This document shows positions 823 to 25,176 of a DNA stretch of 34,396 nucleotides, piece by piece. This DNA is from Candidatus Parcubacteria bacterium. Its GTDB lineage: Bacteria; Patescibacteriota; Minisyncoccia; Phycocordibacterales; UBA918. Each line of letters opens with the position of its first letter. The first letter of the stretch is position 1. Below the pieces are notes generated by a model, which saw only the letters and a program-made list of their open reading frames with translations, was not told the DNA's origin and made no database searches. The stretch covers positions 1 to 34,396 of the forward strand of contig JBJORD010000028.1 in assembly GCA_046049585.1 (NCBI GenBank). Reading direction: 5' to 3'. The position numbers and the translations under genes are program-made.

Positions 823-1200
823 TTACTTAGTAATAGTGTGATAGAGGTTAATAAGAGTGGTTTTGTAGGTTGCGTCGATCAGGGTGTCGCCGCTGCGGAG
901 CTTAGCACCACCGATGATGGTTTCGTCGATTACAACAGTTGGTTTCTCGTCAACGGCCAACTCGGTAAGAAGTGCCTGCACTATGGCACTGTCGACATCA
1001 GCGGCTTTGGCTACCGTGAGGGTAGCAGAGCCAGTGCCAGTACGACGAAGGGTCTCACGCTCAAGCGTCCGTACAATCCGTAGCAAGAGACGCTCATGTC
1101 CGCGACGTGCAAGGACATTCTTGAGGCCAGAAAAAACCGCAGATGGTTTGTGACCAGCCTTGAGACTTTCTACAACCGCAGTGACGTACAAATCGTGCAT
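823..1200 (-). CDS. atpH: F-type ATP synthase delta (OSCP) subunit, unusually short (125 aa)
   Basis: It sits between atpF and atpA. The C-terminal ...IIGGAKLRSGDTLIDATYKTTLINL matches the conserved delta C-terminus (IGG..v..gd.viD.S). Confidence 0.7.
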   Translation of the reverse strand: MHDLYVTAVVESLKAGHKPSAVFSGLKNVLARRGHERLLLRIVRTLERETLRRTGTGSATLTVAKAADVDSAIVQALLTELAVDEKPTVVIDETIIGGAKLRSGDTLIDATYKTTLINLYHTITK

Positions 1201-1203
1201 AGA

Positions 1204-1653
1204 TTATGAGGTGCGCTCACGGAGCATCTTCTCGACTGCGAGAATTGCGGTCTTGGCGATTTCTCCTTCAGCGTCTTTTTGGATCTTAGTAGCAGCTTCA
1301 GTTGCTCGTAGTTCAGCATTACGCACCACAGCATTCGCTTTTTCTTCTGCTTCATTCATAAGCACTGCTGATTTTTCTTCAGCTGCTTGTTTAGCTCGGG
1401 TATTTATGTCTCGAGCTTCTTCGTGAGCAGCTGTCAGAACAGCTTGTTTGGCAATATCAGCATCAGCTTTTGCGCGTGCTGCGTTTTCAGCATCTTTGAT
1501 CCCTTGGGCAATTTTTTCTTCGCGTTCTTTGAGGAGATTGAGTATCGGGTTATACAATAGATACCCCAAAATACCCATCAACACCAAAAAGTTAACCATC
1601 TGAATGATGATTAGGCGAAGGTCGATGCCAAAGGTTGCGATAATGTCTTCCAT
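1204..1653 (-). CDS. atpF: F-type ATP synthase b subunit
   Basis: It has one N-terminal TM helix followed by a long Ala/Glu/Lys-rich helix (KEREEKIAQGIKDAENAARAKADA...). It lies between atpE and atpH. Confidence 0.82.
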   Translation of the reverse strand: MEDIIATFGIDLRLIIIQMVNFLVLMGILGYLLYNPILNLLKEREEKIAQGIKDAENAARAKADADIAKQAVLTAAHEEARDINTRAKQAAEEKSAVLMNEAEEKANAVVRNAELRATEAATKIQKDAEGEIAKTAILAVEKMLRERTS

Positions 1654-1698
1654 AGAGTGATAAATACGTATTTGCTGCTAACAAATACCCTAAGTAAA

Positions 1699-1977
<279 letters not shown>

Positions 1978-2027
1978 CTAATGGACAACGCGAGGAGAGA
2001 ATAGTATTCCCTCTTCGATACTGGCCA

Positions 2028-2828
2028 CTAGTGAGCTGGCTCTTCGACTGCTATCTTGATAAAGAACAACGTCAGAATCGCAAACACAAAGGCTTGAATA
2101 AAACCAACAAACACCTCAAATGCCAACATCGGTACTGGAACAATATAAGGCACAAACATCGTAATAACTAATAGTAACGTCTTCCCGGCCAAGATATTAC
2201 CAAACAATCGAAATGAGAACGAAATGAGGCGAGCTATTTCAGAAACCAATTCGATAAGACCCACAGCAAACGCCAGTGGCGATGAAAAATTAATAAATTT
2301 ACCAGCGTATTTAAATACTCCAATAGCTGATATACCAGCAATTTGAATAGTCAAGAATGCCACCAATGCAAACGCGAAGGTAATATTAAGATCAGTTGCA
2401 GCGGGATAGAGATAAGGCACAAAATGTGATTCTGTACCATGACCTTCATAGAAACCAATGGTCGTGATACCAGGAAAGAGTCCTAGCCAGTTGAGAGTCA
2501 AGATAAACAAGAAAATAGTCATCACTATCGGAAAGTACTTGCGGGCAAGGGTACGACTTTCGAGTACATCCGCCATATAGTCATACACGCCACCAATCAT
2601 GAGCTCAAAGACACTTTGTGTACGTCCAGGGACCATCGTCAATGACCATCTAGCAAATATAGCTACAGCGATCAAGATACACATACCCAACCAAACAGTC
2701 AGTAAGGTAGCGGTGATTGGTACACCAAAAATGTCACCAACAATATATGGTGAGAGGGATACTTTGACACCTTCTTCAGTTGCAGCGTATGCAGTAGCAA
2801 TCAATGACATAATAAGGTGCGGACGCAA
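2028..2828 (-). CDS. atpB: F-type ATP synthase a subunit
   Basis: Polytopic membrane protein with the a-subunit signature ...SFSFRLFGNILAGK... It lies upstream of atpE. The TTG at 2828 or the ATG at 2810 could be the start. Confidence 0.9.
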   Translation of the reverse strand: MRPHLIMSLIATAYAATEEGVKVSLSPYIVGDIFGVPITATLLTVWLGMCILIAVAIFARWSLTMVPGRTQSVFELMIGGVYDYMADVLESRTLARKYFPIVMTIFLFILTLNWLGLFPGITTIGFYEGHGTESHFVPYLYPAATDLNITFAFALVAFLTIQIAGISAIGVFKYAGKFINFSSPLAFAVGLIELVSEIARLISFSFRLFGNILAGKTLLLVITMFVPYIVPVPMLAFEVFVGFIQAFVFAILTLFFIKIAVEEPAH

Positions 2829-3024: not shown

Positions 3025-3255
3025 TTAATTAGTGGGTCGTTTTGGCTCAGAACCGAGGATCCCCCAATGCACCCTCCCCCATACTCGTTCATGACAATAA
3101 TAAAAGAAGATTTTGAGAGTAATATCGACCAAGCCAACCCCCGCTACTATAGCGAGATTGCCAGTCATAAAATACACAACCACCATGGTTGTGCCCGATG
3201 CGGTAATTCTCCAAGTTACACCTTTTACGATGCTACGCCATTTTGATTCATGCAT
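3025..3255 (-). CDS. DUF2061 family small membrane protein
   Basis: KWRSIVKGVTWRITASGTT...KIFFYYCHERVWGRVHWG matches the DUF2061 pattern (K..tWR ... yY.HERvW). It starts 3 nt downstream of the pgi stop. Confidence 0.72.
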   Translation of the reverse strand: MHESKWRSIVKGVTWRITASGTTMVVVYFMTGNLAIVAGVGLVDITLKIFFYYCHERVWGRVHWGILGSEPKRPTN

Positions 3256-3258
3256 AGA

Positions 3259-4563
3259 TTACAGATTGGTGAGTAATTTTTTTGTGACAGTCTTATACTG
3301 TTCAACCTGTGGCTGATCAAACGGATTGACTCCGAGTAAATAGCCAAGCATCATTACTTCACACATTTTAAATTGCATAAAAGCGACAATTGATTCGGGA
3401 GTAAGCTCGGGCAGTGTGACTTCCATAAACGGTAGACTGTTGGCATCATAGGTAGTTTTTGTGCCCTCATATATCGCAGACATAACAGCCGTTGGTGTCT
3501 GACCACCAAGGTATGGCAATACTTCTGGCCACGCCCGATGGGCGGTTAACGGCTCGTCGTGTTGACGTGATGCCACAGACACAAAGGTAGTCAGACGATC
3601 TTTTGGTCCACCAACATACAACTGTCCAACTGAGTGCAGATCAGTTGATCCAACAGTAACTGTTGGTGTGATACCAATTGGTGTATTGGTAGTTGTACTT
3701 GGCTTGCCAATACTTTCTGCCAACAATTGTCGGTACCATTTGCCGACAGACTCCAAGGCTGGCACAAAGACAAACGTATCATGCTGACGAATACCTTGAT
3801 TATAAAAATAGAACTGTGTTAGAGCAGATCGAGCTGCCGGGTTGTGATCTATATCTGGATGCACACATTGATCAAGCATACGTGCAGCACTTTTTTGGAG
3901 ATCTGCGGGGCCAAAACCAAGTAAACCAAGCGGAATAAGCCCCACTGGGGTCATCACAGAATACCGACCACCAACCATTGGCGGTAGTGCGATAGTGTAC
4001 ATTTCTTGTGTTCGCGCCGCTGCAAGCAATGGCGATCCTGTCTCACTGAGTACCACTACTCGCCGTGACTTGCCACCAAATTTATCTGCAAAAGCAGCTA
4101 GTATTGATTCGGCGTTGTAGATGGTTTCGGTGGTAGTACCACTTTTTGTAATAACTAAAAAAAATAACTCATCTGCTGACGTTGCCGCCTGGATAATCTT
4201 ATGCGCCATAGCGAGGAGCGCTGGATCCACGGTATCAATAAATAGTAATCGCGGTGATTCGTGCGGGGATAGGTCTCGAATTGAAGCCATGGCATCATAA
4301 ATTGCTTTGGTACCCAAATTGGAACCACCAATACCGACTACAAAAACATACCGTAATGTGCGTGAATACACACGTTCTATAATTGCTTCAGTCGCCTGCA
4401 GCATGTACTCATCGGTCGGAGCCAAGAGTGAACACTCTGGAGCCGTGTATCCACCCACCTCAATCACTCGACGTAGCTTGGTGATATAGGGTGCCAGACG
4501 AGACTGTACTACAGCCACTGCATTACTTTGTATTGCCTGACTGGTGCTGTTGGTAAATTTCAT
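3259..4563 (-). CDS. pgi: Glucose-6-phosphate isomerase (short ~430-aa type)
   Basis: It has the SIS/PGI motifs FVVGIGGSNLGTKA, ITKSGTTTET, GGRYSV and the C-terminal ...GVNPFDQPQVEQYK. Confidence 0.9.
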   Translation of the reverse strand: MKFTNSTSQAIQSNAVAVVQSRLAPYITKLRRVIEVGGYTAPECSLLAPTDEYMLQATEAIIERVYSRTLRYVFVVGIGGSNLGTKAIYDAMASIRDLSPHESPRLLFIDTVDPALLAMAHKIIQAATSADELFFLVITKSGTTTETIYNAESILAAFADKFGGKSRRVVVLSETGSPLLAAARTQEMYTIALPPMVGGRYSVMTPVGLIPLGLLGFGPADLQKSAARMLDQCVHPDIDHNPAARSALTQFYFYNQGIRQHDTFVFVPALESVGKWYRQLLAESIGKPSTTTNTPIGITPTVTVGSTDLHSVGQLYVGGPKDRLTTFVSVASRQHDEPLTAHRAWPEVLPYLGGQTPTAVMSAIYEGTKTTYDANSLPFMEVTLPELTPESIVAFMQFKMCEVMMLGYLLGVNPFDQPQVEQYKTVTKKLLTNL

Positions 4564-4575
4564 AGATACAAATGA

Positions 4576-6090
4576 CTAAGCTAATCCTGGGAAAAAATCT
4601 CGTTCAATACAACGAGCAGGCACGCCGAGAGTGTGCAGTGACTGATACGCTGCGTCGACCATTTTTGGCGGACCAGAGATATACCATGTACGAGTAGCAT
4701 AGTCAGGAATGCGACGCGAAATGATATCAGCAGACAGGAATCCCGATTCCGCGCCAGGCGGTATTTCACCACTCCCAATGACTGGTACGAGCTCACCGAC
4801 ATTCATGAGCTCCACCTGGTACGCCAAATCAGCGGCAGTCGCCACACAATACAGTGTTTTAATATCACGTTTTTCACCTTGTAGCGTCAGAGTTGTTGCA
4901 TGACTGACAAAGGGAGTCACGCCAATGCCCCCAGCAATAAAGCCAAGCTTCACTACTGGATTTGTCGGTAAGATAAAATCACCTGAACGTTGTGACGCAA
5001 TCACTACGTCTCCTGTCTTAAGATGCACCATAGCAGACTTGTAACTACTTGCATTTTCGGGCAACTTAAAAGCCAAACGCAACTCGTTTTCTTCAGGCGC
5101 TGAAGCGATGGTGAAATAACGACGAGTACCGCGACTATCAGTGTTTTTGTGTGGGACCATCCACTCAAGGTACTGCCCAGCTTTAAATATAAATCCAGCC
5201 GGTTTTGGAAACGAAAATTCGTAGATAGAACCAGTTACTTTTTTGAGACTAGTGAGGGTTAAAATGAGTTTTTGCCGTTGCCCCCATGGCGCGAGAGCGA
5301 TATTACCGACCACCAGCGCCAACTCTGGCGACATTACAAACGAACCAAGCGGCGGCAACGAGGCCACGACGGCCACCAGTGTTGCATATACATACCGAGC
5401 ATTTTTTTGACTCGGCATCGTAAAGGGTTCAGTCAACATGAAGAATCCAAGGAATAAGAACGGGTATGAAATAAAAAAAGTGGTGAGTAATTCAGTAGTC
5501 GAACTTGGATTTTGCCAAGACAAGAGCATATAACACAAGAATCCGACAGCAATAAATACCGCTACCATATCGAGCCGCTTCACTTTTTCTGTTACCAAAA
5601 AACCGCCAATCACAATCGGAATAAACAGTAATGGGGACGCAACCCACCAGGCACCGCCGCCAAAACCAAACAAAGACCCGAGGACAAGACCAGCAGCCAC
5701 AGGATTCACCAAATGTTGCTTTTTGTACACCAGCACATATTTGCTGGCAATAGCCAGTGCAGTAATAACCGCTGAGGCAAACAAATCTTCAGGGGTAGTC
5801 GACGGGAGTAGTAACAATAGTAAAATCAACCCCGTAATAATCGAAGAAGCATGTTGAAGTGGTACTTTTGTGGCAGTGGCACAAGCAGCATTTACCAAGA
5901 GCGCGGTTACCATAATAACTACACTGCTTGCGATAAGTTCCAGTGGTATAAAACCGATATATCCACCAAACGAAGCGAGGAGCGCAACCCCATAGACAGC
6001 AAGTAAAACTTGTATGATCACCGAATACATCGGCATACGATCAAGATACAAGAGCGGTAAACGAGTAACGGTTTGCATAACAGTTTGCAT
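4576..6090 (-). CDS. Fusion protein: N-terminal RnfD/NqrB-like polytopic membrane domain plus C-terminal FNR-like FAD/NAD(P)H oxidoreductase domain
   Basis: The N-terminal ~250 aa are multi-TM and end in FFMLTEPFTMP (compare the NqrB/RnfD f.atDPvTsP motif). The C-terminal half has the FAD motif RRYFTIAS, the NAD(P)H motif GFIAGGIGVTPF and ISGPPKM. I saw no 2Fe-2S Cys cluster. Confidence 0.72.
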   Translation of the reverse strand: MQTVMQTVTRLPLLYLDRMPMYSVIIQVLLAVYGVALLASFGGYIGFIPLELIASSVVIMVTALLVNAACATATKVPLQHASSIITGLILLLLLLPSTTPEDLFASAVITALAIASKYVLVYKKQHLVNPVAAGLVLGSLFGFGGGAWWVASPLLFIPIVIGGFLVTEKVKRLDMVAVFIAVGFLCYMLLSWQNPSSTTELLTTFFISYPFLFLGFFMLTEPFTMPSQKNARYVYATLVAVVASLPPLGSFVMSPELALVVGNIALAPWGQRQKLILTLTSLKKVTGSIYEFSFPKPAGFIFKAGQYLEWMVPHKNTDSRGTRRYFTIASAPEENELRLAFKLPENASSYKSAMVHLKTGDVVIASQRSGDFILPTNPVVKLGFIAGGIGVTPFVSHATTLTLQGEKRDIKTLYCVATAADLAYQVELMNVGELVPVIGSGEIPPGAESGFLSADIISRRIPDYATRTWYISGPPKMVDAAYQSLHTLGVPARCIERDFFPGLA

Positions 6091-6171
6091 ACATCACTAG
6101 TATACTACCCTCTGTAGCTGTCTGACCAACTTCCCTGTATACTTGTATTGTTATTCGTAAAAAATATATCT

Positions 6172-6738
6172 ATGCCAGTTGTTCTTATCATAATTGGATT
6201 AGCAGTAGCGATCGGACTTGGTGGTTACTTTCTTCGTCCTGAAGAAGTGGTCACTCCGGCCACAATAACTGAATTACCTACTACGCCTGAAGCAACGGGT
6301 ACTCCAGTTGTACCAGTTGCGGACAGTAATACCTCTACACCAACCACTCCAGCTGCCACCACACCTACCGTCCCGACTGTCCCGACCGCACCAACTACAC
6401 CTACCGTCCCTGTGACACCCACCACTCCAGCCACTGCCTACGCTGATGGACCATACACCGTGAATACCAGCTACGTTGCACCAGGTAATGCGAATCACAC
6501 CATGGCAGTTACTCTCACCCTTGCTGGTGATACAGTAACCACTGCTTCAATTGTCTACGGTGGTGACTCAGTCGATCAGTCAAGCAACTACCAGAGTCGC
6601 TTCATGCGCGCCTACGAATCACAGGTCGTCGGCAAGAAGCTCGACAGTATCAAGCTTTCACGTGTCGGTGGAGCATCACTCACCAGTAACGGTTTTAATG
6701 ATGCCGTTGCCAAAGTCAAAGCAGCAGCACAAAACTAA
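6172..6738 (+). CDS. Membrane-anchored FMN-binding domain protein (RnfG/NqrC-like) with a Pro/Thr-rich linker
   Basis: It has an N-terminal TM helix (MPVVLIIIGLAVAIGLGGYFL), a ~60-aa PT-rich linker, and a C-terminal FMN_bind-like domain. That domain carries the flavinylation-type motif RVGGASLTS (Ser codon 6676-6678). The ORF-track TTG at 6148 is an alternative start. Confidence 0.72.
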   Translation: MPVVLIIIGLAVAIGLGGYFLRPEEVVTPATITELPTTPEATGTPVVPVADSNTSTPTTPAATTPTVPTVPTAPTTPTVPVTPTTPATAYADGPYTVNTSYVAPGNANHTMAVTLTLAGDTVTTASIVYGGDSVDQSSNYQSRFMRAYESQVVGKKLDSIKLSRVGGASLTSNGFNDAVAKVKAAAQN

Positions 6739-6742
6739 GTGT

Positions 6743-7618
6743 ATGGAATCAATCACCATCGTTGCCCTTGGCACACACTGGTGGATTGAACTATTTGATG
6801 AGATGAGCCCTGAGCGTCGTAATGGAATCGCTAATGCCATTACGACGCTCTTGTCGTCTATCGAAGAACGATTTTCACGGTTTCGTGAAGATTCACTAGT
6901 GAGCACACTAAATCGCGAGCGCAGTGTGGCAACTAGCGATCGGGACCTGGCAGAGCTAATCGGTATTGGCCGATCAACGTATCGCCATACCAAAAGTGCC
7001 TTTAATATTCTGATTGGTGACGCGCTCATGGCGCGTGGCTATGACAACACGTACTCACTCGTAGCCATGGAGCGTGCAGTTGAAATCGGCAACCCACTCA
7101 CTGACCTCGACTACAACGACAACACATGGCGATTATCAACAGGATTACTTGATCTCGGTGGTATTGGTAAAGGCTGGGCTATCGATAAAGTCGCAGAACT
7201 ACTCCGCAACAACGGAGTGGTCGAGTTCCTCATCAACGGTGGTGGCGATATGTATGGTACGACCGAGCATAATGAGCCGATTACCATCTACCTCGAGCAC
7301 CCGACTGAGACACAGACGTATCTCGGCACTACCACCATCATGAACCAGGGCTTTGCCGCCTCAAGCACGTACAAACGTCGCTGGCAGACAGCCGCCGGTG
7401 AGACGAGCCATATAATTGATGACACCAAGGTAATTGACGCTAGTTTCGTTATAGCAACTGACGCTGTGACAGCAGATATTTTTGCCACAACCGCCCTCCT
7501 CCTCCCTGAGGAGGACTTTGCTCCGTTAGCAATGCAAGAACGAGTTTCCTACAGTCTCTTCATTGTAGCAACAGGAGAACTCCGCACTACACCAAATTTT
7601 CCACTACATAGACTATAA
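6743..7618 (+). CDS. apbE: FAD:protein FMN transferase (ApbE family)
   Basis: Matches ApbE in ALGTHWWIELFD, EERFSRFREDSLVSTLN, DLGGIGKGWAIDKV, INGGGDMY, AASSTYKR and HIID. The ATG at 6743 lies 4 nt after the upstream stop. The ORF-track start at 6551 overlaps the previous gene and encodes non-homologous sequence. Confidence 0.85.
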   Translation: MESITIVALGTHWWIELFDEMSPERRNGIANAITTLLSSIEERFSRFREDSLVSTLNRERSVATSDRDLAELIGIGRSTYRHTKSAFNILIGDALMARGYDNTYSLVAMERAVEIGNPLTDLDYNDNTWRLSTGLLDLGGIGKGWAIDKVAELLRNNGVVEFLINGGGDMYGTTEHNEPITIYLEHPTETQTYLGTTTIMNQGFAASSTYKRRWQTAAGETSHIIDDTKVIDASFVIATDAVTADIFATTALLLPEEDFAPLAMQERVSYSLFIVATGELRTTPNFPLHRL

Positions 7619-7735
7619 ATACTACTGGTTGGAGCCATTTCTACTACTTACAGAGTAATGTGTAAGAAATACATAGATCATCCGTCTAAGGCTTGGGAGG
7701 TTGACGGAAGAAGCCAAAACCTAAAGGAGATGACG

Positions 7736-8215
7736 ATGAAACCCCTGCATGAAATATGCAAATTGATTGTGATTTGTTCACTAGGAGTATTTGCTACTCC
7801 CACAATAGCGAGCGAATCAGAGTCACTACCCAAACAAGTGCTCACCAATGAGGATGTTCAGCGTGCTTTTATTCAAGCAAAAATTGTTGAACATTTCCCA
7901 GAAGACTACTCTGTAATGCTCGCAATAGCCTATTGCGAGTCGCGATCCCGGCCTTTTATCCATTACGAGAGTGATGGTTCACTACGGGGACATGACACCG
8001 GAGCGTCAACAGCTGGTGGAACTTACCAAGTGCTCATGGGGCTACATGGCGATGCCATTCGCGAAATGGGCCTCGACATGAGCAATCTCGACGACTACTT
8101 TACATTCGTCGAGCGCTTGAAACGCGAGAATCCCAACTATGGTGCCTGGAGCGAATCGAAGAGCTGCTGGAAGAGTCGGATTGGTGACTTTGATCCAAAC
8201 GTGAATATCAGCTGA
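7736..8215 (+). CDS. Secreted lytic transglycosylase-like (SLT/lysozyme-like fold) protein
   Basis: SD AAGGAG at 7724-7729 lies 6 nt before the ATG. It has a signal-like N-terminus (MKPLHEICKLIVICSLGVFATPTIASE). Motifs AIAYCESRS ... GGTYQVLMG ... NPNYGAW resemble the ES / GLMQ / AYNaG pattern of family-1 transglycosylases. Confidence 0.5.
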   Translation: MKPLHEICKLIVICSLGVFATPTIASESESLPKQVLTNEDVQRAFIQAKIVEHFPEDYSVMLAIAYCESRSRPFIHYESDGSLRGHDTGASTAGGTYQVLMGLHGDAIREMGLDMSNLDDYFTFVERLKRENPNYGAWSESKSCWKSRIGDFDPNVNIS

Positions 8216-8337: not shown

Positions 8338-11067
8338 CTAACCTTCAGTCGTAGCTATAGTACTTGGTTCTTGACTGTTCTCAGTTACCACAGGCTCGAT
8401 ACCGACTGCAGCTTCTGCATTTTCTGTTGTGTTTAGTTCGGTTGTATTGGTATCACTAGGCTCACTTGTTTCATTAGATGTCTCTTCTGTTGCTGGCGAC
8501 GGTGCCTCAAATTGATTTTCAATAGCTTCTAAACGTTCTCGCAACAGGGCGTTTTCATTTTCCAAATCAGTCAATCTATCTTCGTGTCCGCTGATAGTCT
8601 GCCAAATTTCTTGTATGGCTTCTACTACCACAGCTACTAGGTTCTTGGTATTGAGCGACCAATAATCTCCCCCTTTTTGTACTACTTCTGGCACAACCAG
8701 ATCTACTTCTTGTGCCAAAAATCCTACCTCCGATTGGGTACCAAAACGTTCCGTATCCAACCATTCATACCGTACACCACGCAGGGCCAACACCATTTCA
8801 AGCGCACCACTAATTTCTTGCACATTTGTCTTGAGACGCTCATCTGAGGGATCACGAATGATGGCGCCATTGGCATCGACACTGAGGTTGGTAGCACCAC
8901 CAAGCAGATTCGTGGCTGTAATGGTGCCAGTGACTGTCAATTTGGTACCAGGAGTCGATGTTCCAATACCTACATTACCGTTACTGTGTATGGCAAAAAT
9001 ATCACCGTCAGTTATATTGGTAATACCAAAATAGCCCAAAGTTGAGGTGGCCAGGCTTTCGATACCAAACTCAGGAGTAGTATCAAGTAACCCCAAATTA
9101 CCAGCTGAAGTAAGACGTAATCGTTCTGCAAATACTCCTACAGAGACGGTCGAGAATCCAATAAATCCGTTGGGTGTAGTGTTATTGGTATCCTCTCTAG
9201 AGAGAGTAATCTGTGATGCTCGATCATCTGTGGTCGTAAATGAGGTGTTGTAATGTGCAATCCGTCCTGCTGTAGTAGTGATACTGTTACCGGCAGAACG
9301 CATTAGTATTTCTGTACTACGATTACTCGTACTATCAGATCCCACAAAACCATCTAATGTCAGTGAAGTGCCCGTAGTGCTCGATGCTGTGCTAAAAGCA
9401 ATAAAAGTCGCTCCACCGACACCGAGATGCTGACCATTAAATTGTAACTTGTTTGAAAAGAGTAGTTGATTAGCTGTACTTGTTGCAAATGGAATTGCAT
9501 TAGCGGTATAGACACTCGGGGTATCAGTTAGGCCTAGAAATGTTGATGCCCCACCACCACTAATTCCAAGCGAGGAAGTGGCCACCCAAGTTGGCAAACC
9601 ACTTACGACTTGCAATACTTGACCAGTAGTACCAATAGCTCGACTGGCCAATGTATCAGCTCCTGAAGCATAGAGCAGGTCGCCACTAGAATACGTAACT
9701 AATCCTGTTCCTCCCGAACTAACATCGAGTACCTCAGATAAGGTCAGTCTGGTTATTGTTGTAGTTGCTAAAGTAGAGGTACCAACAACACTAAGCCTGC
9801 CAGAATTTGTAGTACTAGCAAAAGTGGCTGTACCGGTAAAGGTTGGGCCATTTGAGAATACCGCCAATCCTCCACCTGCTGAACCAGTTTCGTCAGAGAG
9901 TAGCGCAGCTAGTTGCTCTGAAGTGGTGAATGCTGAAGACAAACCAAGTGACGAGGTGGCAATTTGTGACCACGAGTTACCAGCTCCACCAATGAGGAGT
10001 TGGTTTGTGGTGATGGTCGAGAGACCAGTCCCACCACGGGTAGCAGCGAGGGTACCAGTAGTATCGGCGATAGCGATATTGAGACTGGTGGTAGACACAC
10101 TAAGGGTGTTGCCAGTCCAGAAGAGATTGGTACCAGCGGTAATGCGAGCACTAGGGGCGTTGTAGTACGTGTTCCAGTTGGTAGATGAAGCAGTGAGGAT
10201 TCCTTCATAGCCAGCTGCGTAATCAATGGCCAAAGTACCAGTGGTTGTTATTGGTGAGCCAGAGATGGTAAAGCCTGTTGGTACAGTAGCTGCGATAGAT
10301 GACACAGTGCCACTACCGCCCCCACTGATTCCAAGCGATGAAGTCGCGACCCAGCGAGTAGAAGTACCAGTGCTCTGTAATATCATGCCAGATGCCCCAG
10401 CACTAGCTGTCGCATCTCGTAACGAGCCAGCTAAGGCGAGATCACCAGCAATAGTTAGTAACGCGATTGAGCTACTCGTACCAATACTCACTCTACCAGC
10501 TCCGTCGATATATATCCCCTCATTACCACCATCACCAGTTAACCAATTGGTGCCGAGCGCTAAATTGGAACCAATCGCACCAGAGAATATTGGCGCAACA
10601 AGTGTCGTACTAGAAACAGTAGCGGGATTTACTACAACACTCTCACGCACTTCGATAAAGTCGCTACTTGCATCATCCATAAAACTAAATAGTTGTTTTT
10701 CAAGCCGATTGATCCGCACATCACGAGACTGCTGTTGCTGCATCAATTGAACATAGCGCACCATCCCCACAAATCGACTATCGGTATATTGTTTAAAAGC
10801 ATTCCATTCATCATGACTAATACCAGTACTGTTAGATAGCTTCGTAAATTGATTGGATTGCACGAAAGGACTCACTACGGTAGTAGAAGCAACAAGTAAT
10901 TGACGCGTGATTGGTTCTGAGACTGGGACGGTATGAGTTACCACAGTATCTGCCACTACTGGGAAGGTGGTATATACCACCGAATCAGAGGACGACGAAA
11001 AAACTCCCATAACAGTGGCTAAGAGAAATGTAGATACGGTGGACAGAGAACTTACAAACCAGTCCAT
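8338..11067 (-). CDS. 909-aa N-terminally membrane-anchored tail-fibre-like surface protein with a C-terminal Peptidase_S74 intramolecular chaperone domain
   Basis: It has an N-terminal TM helix (VSTFLLATVMGVF) and a Q-rich coiled coil. A ~600-aa Gly/Ser/Thr-rich beta-repeat region follows, with the duplicated modules WVATSSLGISGGG and GGTGL...LL.G. GNVGIGTSTPGTKLTV is followed by DPSDERLKTNVQEISGALEMVLALRGVRYEW...GFLAQEV (S74 autoproteolysis signature, Ser codon 8845-8847), a coiled coil and an acidic tail. Confidence 0.8.
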   Translation of the reverse strand: MDWFVSSLSTVSTFLLATVMGVFSSSSDSVVYTTFPVVADTVVTHTVPVSEPITRQLLVASTTVVSPFVQSNQFTKLSNSTGISHDEWNAFKQYTDSRFVGMVRYVQLMQQQQSRDVRINRLEKQLFSFMDDASSDFIEVRESVVVNPATVSSTTLVAPIFSGAIGSNLALGTNWLTGDGGNEGIYIDGAGRVSIGTSSSIALLTIAGDLALAGSLRDATASAGASGMILQSTGTSTRWVATSSLGISGGGSGTVSSIAATVPTGFTISGSPITTTGTLAIDYAAGYEGILTASSTNWNTYYNAPSARITAGTNLFWTGNTLSVSTTSLNIAIADTTGTLAATRGGTGLSTITTNQLLIGGAGNSWSQIATSSLGLSSAFTTSEQLAALLSDETGSAGGGLAVFSNGPTFTGTATFASTTNSGRLSVVGTSTLATTTITRLTLSEVLDVSSGGTGLVTYSSGDLLYASGADTLASRAIGTTGQVLQVVSGLPTWVATSSLGISGGGASTFLGLTDTPSVYTANAIPFATSTANQLLFSNKLQFNGQHLGVGGATFIAFSTASSTTGTSLTLDGFVGSDSTSNRSTEILMRSAGNSITTTAGRIAHYNTSFTTTDDRASQITLSREDTNNTTPNGFIGFSTVSVGVFAERLRLTSAGNLGLLDTTPEFGIESLATSTLGYFGITNITDGDIFAIHSNGNVGIGTSTPGTKLTVTGTITATNLLGGATNLSVDANGAIIRDPSDERLKTNVQEISGALEMVLALRGVRYEWLDTERFGTQSEVGFLAQEVDLVVPEVVQKGGDYWSLNTKNLVAVVVEAIQEIWQTISGHEDRLTDLENENALLRERLEAIENQFEAPSPATEETSNETSEPSDTNTTELNTTENAEAAVGIEPVVTENSQEPSTIATTEG

Positions 11068-24334: not shown

Positions 24335-24417
24335 ATGTGAGAGTATAGCACAATCGTTGTCTGTCTTGCGACATGATATACTAATTCTATTGTAAATAGT
24401 AATGATTGTTTAATACC

Positions 24418-25176
24418 ATGCCTGAAGATACATTTTCACCAAAGCAGCCCTCAACAATGAGCACCCTAGGGGTACCCATTGCGATTGTTGTTGGCTTTGC
24501 AATGATTGCCGCTGCTATCCTTTTTAGTGGGAACAATGCCACGACCCCAATTGCCCCAGTAGCAGACAGTGGCGCCGAAGAAACCACCCCAGCTAAGGTC
24601 ACTCCCGTATCAGAAACTGATTTCATCCGCGGTAATCCAAATGCTCCTATTATGGTGGTTGAGTACTCGGACTATGATTGCCCATTTTGTAAAAACTTCC
24701 ATGAGACTATGAGGTTGATCCTCGAAGACTATGGTGTGACTGGTAAAGTAGCTTGGGTCTACCGCCAATTCCCCATTGCCCAGCTACACCCCAATGCACC
24801 AAGAATCTCCGAAGCAGCCTTTTGTGTTGGTGAACTCGGCAACGATGAAGCATTTTGGAAATTTTCTGACCTAATCTTTAGTGAACGTGAAATCAATGAA
24901 CCAACAAACATGACAAGACTGCCTGAATTTGCAGAAAAGTCTGGGGTAAAACGAGCAGACTTCAATAGCTGTCTCGAAAGTGGTCGTCATAAAGTAACCG
25001 TCGAAAACAGTCTCAAAGATGGCGTACGCTCTGGCGCTCAGGGTACACCGTACTCAGTTATCCTAGTCGGTGACCAGCAAGCAGTGATCAATGGTGCACA
25101 ACCATATCCTGTTGTAAAACAAATAATTGAAAACCTCCTCACCCAACTTGAGGGAGGTACAGTCACTCCACAATAA
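24418..25176 (+). CDS. Membrane-anchored DsbA-family thiol:disulfide oxidoreductase
   Basis: It has an N-terminal TM anchor and a thioredoxin fold with active site DCPFCKNFH. It also has the GTPYSVI cis-Pro region. Confidence 0.8.
   Translation: MPEDTFSPKQPSTMSTLGVPIAIVVGFAMIAAAILFSGNNATTPIAPVADSGAEETTPAKVTPVSETDFIRGNPNAPIMVVEYSDYDCPFCKNFHETMRLILEDYGVTGKVAWVYRQFPIAQLHPNAPRISEAAFCVGELGNDEAFWKFSDLIFSEREINEPTNMTRLPEFAEKSGVKRADFNSCLESGRHKVTVENSLKDGVRSGAQGTPYSVILVGDQQAVINGAQPYPVVKQIIENLLTQLEGGTVTPQ

Follow-up and report, generated by a model that had tools for sequence, protein, structure and literature searches.

How might a bacterium of the candidate phyla radiation (CPR), a group without respiratory chains, keep its redox balance, and what role would its ATP synthase have? 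The question is raised by a 34,396-nucleotide contig of a Candidatus Parcubacteria bacterium (JBJORD010000028.1, assembly GCA_046049585.1), analysed over its whole length and referred to below as the window, in which three adjacent genes form a compact module. One encodes a 504-aa fusion of an NqrB/RnfD-like membrane domain to a reductase domain of the ferredoxin-NADP+ reductase (FNR) type (4576..6090, minus strand). Divergent from it on the plus strand are the genes for an NqrC/RnfG-like partner that binds flavin mononucleotide (FMN) (6172..6738) and for an ApbE-family FAD:protein FMN transferase (6743..7618). The module is read here as a two-subunit, flavin-only, one-way conduit that takes electrons of NAD(P)H in the cytoplasm to the outside of the cell, an account that we consider rather likely. 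Such a two-protein path would be a concrete candidate answer to both parts of the question, and the module is small enough to be reconstituted.

The module itself is already in the literature. As set out by Méheust et al. (2021, PMC8238504), an NQR/RNF-like system is defined by a fusion of PF03116 and PF00175 within a flavinylation gene cluster, the fusion gene lying within five genes of ApbE (PF02424) or FMN_bind (PF04205). The window protein carries PF03116 in its N-terminal part and PF00175 in its C-terminal part, and the ApbE gene is in the same cluster of three. The window adds another member of this system, not a discovery.

The membrane domain and its missing flavin loop

The membrane domain (aa 1–272, 5275..6090, minus strand) has an amphipathic N-terminal helix and ca. 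10 helices in the AlphaFold2 (AF2) model. The Pfam family NQR2_RnfD_RnfE (PF03116) matches the fusion at 30.3 bits, above the curated cut-off of 27.7, at aa 140–243; this match spans only about 100 residues, so the whole membrane domain was examined. A fold search with the full-length model (mean predicted local distance difference test, pLDDT, 86.4) was swamped by matches to the FNR domain and was rerun on the N-terminal domain alone. The model of aa 1–272 (pLDDT 88.9, predicted TM-score 0.85) had only RnfD or NqrB chains among its top 15 Foldseek matches in the PDB – the RnfD chains 8rbq_D, 9eri_D, 8ahx_D and 7zc6_D at a query TM-score (TMq) of 0.66–0.70, and NqrB chains at 0.53–0.63. The next matches, with far weaker E-values, include urea transporters. 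A plain hidden Markov model (HMM) search of PDB sequences with the membrane-domain profile reached no RnfD or NqrB, so the sequence relationship is remote; homology rests on Pfam, hhalign and the fold search, which agree with the RnfD/NqrB-type assignment made in a preliminary description of this locus.

The hhalign comparison of a 17-member family profile with Escherichia coli RsxD (82% probability, E 1e-5) aligned query residues 63–268 with RsxD residues 52–334. Within this alignment RsxD residues ca. 158–217, about 60 in number and including Thr187, have no match, and the query steps directly from G145 to G146. The unmatched stretch holds D-G-I-S-Q-A-T187, which in RsxD corresponds to the S/T-G-A-T flavinylation site of RnfD. 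Because the query makes this step with no counterpart to the RsxD stretch, the flavin-carrying loop is, on the alignment, deleted from the fusion and not mutated, and the loop at aa 141–152 marks the place. The motif [ST]GA[ST] is absent from the whole 504-aa protein, as the preliminary description had said of the membrane domain. The motifs it quoted are also all present in the fusion: FFMLTEPFTMP at aa 216–226, RRYFTIAS at 323–330, GGIGVTP at 387–393 and SGPPKM at 472–477. An invariant pair, Trp148-Trp149, had been considered as a replacement for the flavinylated Thr and was rejected, since hhalign shows a loop deletion.

Lys and Arg residues of the fusion cluster in the loops at 120–129, 171–172 and 219–228 and past residue 266. 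The order of helices in the model and this distribution, read by the positive-inside rule, are consistent with a topology in which the N-terminus, the basic loops and the reductase domain are inside the cell and the deletion site at aa 141–152 is outside. In an alignment of 33 fusion sequences (55% mean column identity), the invariant polar residues of the membrane domain are K117, Q125, H126, N129, K169, T220 and E221. His126 is the sole invariant His there, and His80 is nearly invariant. With this single invariant His in the membrane domain and no Cys conserved, an Fe-S or haem carrier in the fusion was rejected.

The reductase domain

The remainder of the fusion (aa 273–504, 4576..5274, minus strand) is a predicted cytoplasmic FAD/NAD(P)H reductase. 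NAD_binding_1 (PF00175) matches at 28.4 bits against a curated cut-off of 22, and FNR-type models of NCBIfam cover aa 278–500. The FAD motif RRYFT (323–327), the nucleotide motif GGIGxTP, the SGP triplet and a C-terminal DFF (DFFPGLA in the window) are invariant across the 33 homologues. A profile search of the PDB with the family found, at E 1e-15 to 1e-19, GcoB (a cytochrome P450 reductase), the FAD domains of NqrF, and cytochrome b5 reductases, the NqrF matches reaching 2.6e-17, and in Foldseek the full-length model superposes on structures of the NqrF FAD domain and of FNR. No 2Fe-2S ferredoxin domain, as found in full-length NqrF, was called in the fusion by Pfam or NCBIfam. The four Cys residues of the protein are scattered and none is conserved, so an Fe-S centre is not expected. 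The earlier characterisation of this half as an NqrF/FNR-type FAD-NAD(P)H unit without Fe-S is borne out by PF00175 and by the profile and fold matches. In enzymes of the FNR family, use of NADH goes with an acidic residue that follows strand two of the nucleotide-binding fold; the window protein has one (AADLAY), and because of it NADH is the more likely donor than NADPH, judging from the sequence.

The FMN-binding partner and its site

The open reading frame (ORF) of the partner opens at TTG 6148 (6148–6738, plus strand, 196 aa). Its true start is probably ATG 6172, which gives 188 aa, because the corresponding Met is invariant in relatives. Numbered in the 196-aa ORF, the protein has a hydrophobic, putative signal-anchor at aa 11–29 (6178..6234; Kyte-Doolittle 19-residue mean 2.59), then a stalk at aa 33–107 (6244..6468) that is 55% Pro and Thr, and near the C-terminus a predicted flavinylation site, S-R-V-G-G-A-S, at aa 171–177 (6658..6678). 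GGAS occupies aa 174–177, and Ser177 is the predicted FMN acceptor. Relatives of the partner also have linkers rich in Ser, Thr and Pro, of variable length.

That the partner is an FMN_bind homologue, as first described, is supported by comparison with its relatives. Jackhmmer searches among related loci connect it to partner genes that adjoin ApbE genes, and 10 of the 14 aligned partners match Pfam FMN_bind, the best at E 8e-12. A comparison of the partner family with the single sequence of RsxG by hhalign was not significant (probability 1%) and was replaced by one of profile against profile. In this comparison the window-type and canonical partners match at 97.4% probability (E 1.5e-11); S-R-V-G-G-A-S aligns with D-M-V-S-G-A-T, and Ser177 falls on the Thr that is flavinylated in canonical partners.

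Among 79 distinct partners, the Gly two residues before the acceptor is kept in 78. At the next position 64 partners have Ala and 15 have Ser; the acceptor itself is Ser in 64 and Thr in 15, and Asp at -6 is found in just 14. The commonest form of the site is that of the window, S-R-V-G-G-A-S (34 of the 79). The G-A-[ST] core, counted as conserved in 78 of 79, supports the reading of the module as an electron exporter. The published flavinylation motif is D-x-x-[S/T]-G-A-[S/T], with Ser accepted (PMC12052999). According to the passage of that paper that quotes a mutational study, replacing D by A has a minor effect, and G-to-A or A-to-V changes approximately halve flavinylation.

Two types of site go with two types of transferase. 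The window-type site is paired with a long ApbE (ca. 291 aa) in 41 of 41 cases, and the canonical site with a short ApbE (ca. 245 aa) in 15 of 16. This co-variation argues that the ApbE of the module acts on the Ser177 site; it supports this, without proving it.

An ApbE without an export signal

The transferase gene encodes 291 aa and lies 4 bp past the partner gene, so that the ApbE adjacency reported earlier holds. The product matches PF02424 with E 4e-38 over profile positions 1–258 of 266 and aligns to E. coli Ftp/ApbE over the GxGKG-like, SSxY and HxID segments. The reading frame is open from TTG 6551, and the stretch from 6551 overlaps the partner gene and is not hydrophobic. From the sequence, the real start is ATG 6743 and not TTG 6551; it is 4 bp past the partner stop and matches the gene calls of close relatives. 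Residue 9 then aligns to residue 42 of the E. coli enzyme, and only 8 residues precede the first conserved strand, compared to 41 in E. coli, where they include the lipoprotein signal. There is no signal peptide or lipobox. Nor is the window alone in this – a hydrophobic N-terminus is found in none of 66 ApbEs adjoining fusion homologues (L002–L166), even when the longest ORF is taken. The ApbE of the module appears to stay inside the cell.

This sits awkwardly with a target predicted to be outside. The leaderless ApbE of Klebsiella pneumoniae serves a soluble, cytoplasmic fumarate reductase (PMC12052999), and the reference list of the same paper includes Bertsova et al. (2014) on localisation-controlled specificity of flavin transferases. 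For the surveyed flavinylation clusters, as described in the available sections of PMC8238504 and PMC10979944, a signal peptide on a single target gene was enough, and those sections contain no mention of ApbEs that lack a signal peptide. Three resolutions are possible: the linear motif near the C-terminus of the partner may be flavinylated before translocation, ApbE may be exported by a non-classical route, or the FMN domain may be cytoplasmic. Flavinylation before translocation is possible because ApbE accepts seven-residue tags, best at protein termini, and because the partner and ApbE genes abut or overlap. In its full form, this proposal is that covalent FMN is loaded in the cytoplasm by a leaderless ApbE translated right after its target, and that the flavin leaves the cell with the partner as it is threaded through the membrane. 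It is put forward tentatively, as somewhat doubtful. If true, extracytosolic flavoproteins would have a new route of maturation; FAD export would become unnecessary in minimal cells, and the view that ApbE must share a compartment with its mature target would be contradicted.

Distribution and gene order

More than 2,600 homologues of the fusion were found at E ≤ 1e-5 among 8,000 candidates scored, and the membrane-domain profile alone gave at least 551 clusters (50% identity) at E ≤ 1e-30. The fusion is therefore not a chance event. The best 150 membrane-domain clusters are mostly 480–530 aa long, the length of an FNR fusion, and the shorter cluster members are probably fragments. Those fusion homologues that carry an organism name are from Patescibacteria (Pacebacteria, Nomurabacteria, Kaiserbacteria and Parcubacteria). 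Overall the fusion is conserved over Patescibacteria, Chloroflexota and Actinomycetota, with full-length loci in species genomes from Patescibacteria, Saccharibacteria, Peribacteria, Ktedonospora, Micrococcales, Amnibacterium and Nocardioides.

Of 91 loci, 50 have all three genes side by side, divergent in 35 and co-directional in 15; the remaining loci are mostly on short contigs. In the species genomes the genes are closely packed on a single strand, in the order partner, ApbE, fusion. The clade of the window has the divergent arrangement. In the window only ca. 60–80 bp separate the fusion and partner genes, or 81 bp (6091..6171) with the partner start at ATG 6172. Overlapping, weak promoter-like hexamers are present on both strands of the region, at 6077–6106 (plus) and 6128–6099 (minus). 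The palindrome TATACT/AGTATA at 6099–6106 is common to the hexamers of both strands and is not above chance over the region scanned. Scans for promoters and terminators gave nothing beyond chance, and riboswitches, other RNA elements and tRNAs were looked for and none found.

Proposed electron path and alternatives

In the favoured account, NAD(P)H – more likely NADH – would reduce the FAD of the cytoplasmic reductase domain. Electrons would then cross the membrane domain, possibly by way of a non-covalent flavin on the cytoplasmic side, like riboflavin in NqrB. The covalent FMN of the partner would take them up while docked in the pocket left by the deleted loop, comparable to the AlphaFold-multimer model in PMC10979944, and would in turn reduce an external acceptor that is not encoded nearby. 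Comparison of sequences and structures shows the identities of the domains, the deleted loop, the logic of the topology and how well the site is conserved; from these we infer the cofactors, the flavinylation, the direction of flow and the acceptor. For a CPR cell that lives by fermentation and has no quinones, disposal of glycolytic reducing equivalents and regeneration of NAD+ would be the likely role, which fits a probable co-transcription of the fusion gene with pgi. The flavin-only, outward transfer from NAD(P)H suggested in the preliminary description is the same as that proposed for this architecture in PMC8238504 and PMC10979944.

Several observations weigh against this account. No experimental study of any NQR/RNF-like member was found in the literature, and clustering of neighbouring genes revealed neither a terminal reductase or acceptor gene recurring by the module nor a recurrent partner gene beyond the three. 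The profile searches that had been proposed as a check gave a divided result: PF03116 and PF00175 matched above their cut-offs, PF02424 matched as well, and FMN_bind (PF04205) fell below its own for the window partner (E 0.016, 16.3 bits against 22). The site had been called a flavinylation-type GGAS; G-A-S is kept and aligns to the canonical site, and the Asp and the [S/T] at -3 of D-x-x-[S/T]-G-A-[S/T] are lost. Finally, all 66 cluster-linked ApbEs are predicted to be cytoplasmic; ApbE localisation is reported to determine which targets are modified, and the enzyme of Salmonella enterica is functional only if periplasmic (PMC12052999).

The lack of a leader on all 66 of these ApbEs would be explained if the FMN_bind domain remained on the cytoplasmic face, or were flavinylated and put to use there, and the module acted at the membrane as an inward-facing reductase of the NAD(P)H:flavin or NAD(P)H:acceptor type. 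There is precedent for an ApbE in the cytoplasm that acts on targets of the same compartment (PMC12052999), and partners of the window's clade, which begin MPVVLIII..., lack a basic residue ahead of the helix. This arrangement is nevertheless unlikely. An N-terminal hydrophobic segment like a signal-anchor is present in 77 of 82 distinct partners, with a mean net charge of +0.81 before it and -1.12 after it, and many partners begin with a classic MKK-hydrophobic sequence. Stalks rich in Ser, Thr and Pro are typical of surface proteins, the pocket where the RnfD loop is deleted faces outward, and the membrane domain would have no purpose. It is less probable again that the module is a quinone reductase, acting for example on a host-derived quinone at an NqrB-like riboflavin/ubiquinone site, with the FMN partner as a side branch. 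The structural matches do include NqrB chains, some from inhibitor- and quinone-bound entries, and the last steps of NQR to quinone go through NqrB (PMC10979944). However, RnfD, which has no quinone site, is structurally closer by the TMq values given above; the hhalign match does not begin until RsxD residue 52, which leaves the N-terminal region unshared; no quinone biosynthesis genes are found in the window; and a conserved, anchored FMN protein would be left unexplained.

The least probable of the alternatives, and a very improbable one, makes the module a minimal redox-driven Na+ or H+ pump that uses the NqrB/RnfD channel fold and works with the neighbouring ATP synthase. The full RnfD/NqrB fold is retained, with its invariant polar residues. 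ATP synthase genes lie beside the module in three layouts – F-type downstream of the fusion gene, V-type by the ApbE gene, and F-type by the ApbE gene – and are found within 5–7 kb in 4 of 24 eligible lineages (clustered at 60% identity), compared to 2–3% by chance on our own rough estimate, not a computed value, for a genome of ca. 0.8 Mb. The association is, however, confined to the clade of the window, with no ATP synthase neighbours in the loci that have a co-directional operon, and inherited synteny could explain it; the clade-limited link is suggestive only. The NqrD/E or RnfA/E partners of a pump are missing, and outward electron transfer would itself move charge in the depolarising direction.

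Genomic neighbourhood

The context given in the preliminary description – pgi beside the fusion gene, ATP synthase genes near, no respiratory genes in the segment – was found in the window as described. The pgi gene (3259..4563, minus strand; PF00342) is 12 bp downstream of the fusion gene on the same strand, and the two are probably co-transcribed. After a gap of 3 bp follows a gene for a small membrane protein of 76 aa (3025..3255, minus strand; DUF2061, PF09834), in the interval between pgi and atpB, and then atpB, atpF and atpH (823–2828, minus strand). The order fusion-pgi is also found with F-type genes in L082, L085, L098, L101 and L139, in relatives down to ca. 40% identity. In L084, L114–L128 and L159, genes of a V/A-type ATPase are at the ApbE end and DUF2061 is downstream of the fusion gene, and in one locus (L140) F-type alpha, gamma and beta genes adjoin ApbE. 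Among the neighbours, pgi recurs most often (7 of 46 lineages), followed by DUF2061 (6) and atpB (6). In 6 of 34 eligible lineages a DUF2061 homologue is encoded downstream of the fusion gene, at a distance of at most 3.6 kb, even with the ATP synthase on the opposite side.

No quinone or cytochrome genes are found in the window, the rest of which is housekeeping, and no other NQR/RNF subunits were found among its ORFs of at least 100 aa or the Pfam-annotated genes of four related contigs. The gene after ApbE varies by clade, encoding either a secreted transglycosylase-like protein or a 245-aa anchored, coiled-coil-like protein. In the window it encodes a 185-aa secreted protein just past ApbE (7658–8215, plus strand), with no Pfam match and with an AIAYCESR motif read as lytic-transglycosylase-like; homologues of 136–192 aa follow ApbE in L082, L083, L087, L088 and L092, and are not found in distant clades. 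A gene at 8338–11067 (minus strand) encodes a 909-aa protein rich in Ser, Thr and Gly, with a C-terminal Peptidase_S74 domain, which in tail-fibre proteins of phages and in endosialidases is an intramolecular chaperone. The close relative L082 lacks this protein at the equivalent position, and an S74 protein of 1,591 aa adjoins the module in L085. The 909-aa protein may be a surface fibre or phage-derived. Farther away, a DsbA-like protein of thioredoxin fold (24406–25176, plus strand) is an extracytoplasmic redox protein with no quinone-dependent reoxidation partner visible in the segment.

Comparison with known systems

The two-protein flavin chain was implied to be new in the preliminary description, and this does not hold, as it is an already published prediction (PMC8238504, PMC10979944). 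In the two papers a one-way transfer from NAD(P)H to extracytosolic FMN is proposed, and the system is reported mainly in Actinobacteria and the CPR. The 2024 follow-up modelled the pair of Ktedonobacter racemifer by AlphaFold-multimer and saw no conservation of the NqrB/RnfD flavinylation site; its proposal is that the flavin pocket of the membrane subunit is sampled by the covalent flavin of the partner (PMC10979944). No further papers on the NQR/RNF-like system were found in the literature.

The window module shares with that system the defining fusion, the NqrC/RnfG-like partner, the adjacent ApbE, the lost NqrB/RnfD flavinylation site, the phyla (CPR, Actinobacteria and Chloroflexota) and the proposal of one-way transfer from NAD(P)H to the outside. 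It differs in several respects: the fusion gene of the window's clade is transcribed away from the partner-ApbE pair and not in one operon with it, the site is S-R-V-G-G-A-S and not D-x-x-S-G-A-T, ApbE has ca. 291 and not ca. 245 aa, the stalk is rich in Pro and Thr, and the genes are linked to pgi, DUF2061 and ATP synthase genes. To the published picture the present analysis adds that the flavin loop of RnfD is deleted and apparently replaced in trans by the FMN of the partner; that two types of site are matched to two types of ApbE; and that the dedicated ApbE is consistently leaderless, which calls into question either the label "extracytosolic" or the rule on where flavinylation takes place.

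Compared to Na+-NQR (NqrA-F) and RNF (RnfA-G), the module has the same RnfD/NqrB fold, an NqrF-like FAD/NADH half and an NqrC/RnfG-like partner served by ApbE. It has two subunits where those complexes have six, and is without NqrD/E (RnfA/E), NqrA, RnfB/C and an Fe-S centre. Its covalent-FMN loop of the B/D subunit is deleted, and the predicted path is one-way and outward, whereas theirs is a U-turn. NADPH oxidases (NOX) and other proteins with a ferric-reductase domain (FRD), such as the Streptococcus pneumoniae NADPH oxidase (8qt6), are similar in that an FNR-type dehydrogenase is fused to a membrane domain and electrons of NAD(P)H are exported. The weak structural and profile matches between the module and NOX/FRD proteins stem from the shared FNR domain. 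NOX has two haems in a six-helix ferric-reductase domain, and the membrane domain of the module is RnfD-like; as it has no conserved His pairs or Cys, its carriers must be flavins, if the proposed path is right. The flavin-based extracellular electron transfer system of Listeria (Ndh2/EetAB/PplA/FmnB) is also found in a monoderm, takes electrons from NADH to the outside and relies on ApbE-type flavinylation of a surface FMN_bind protein. Its route runs through a quinone pool dedicated to it, and its ApbE (FmnB) is a lipoprotein, whereas the module has a leaderless ApbE and would reach the outside without a quinone step.

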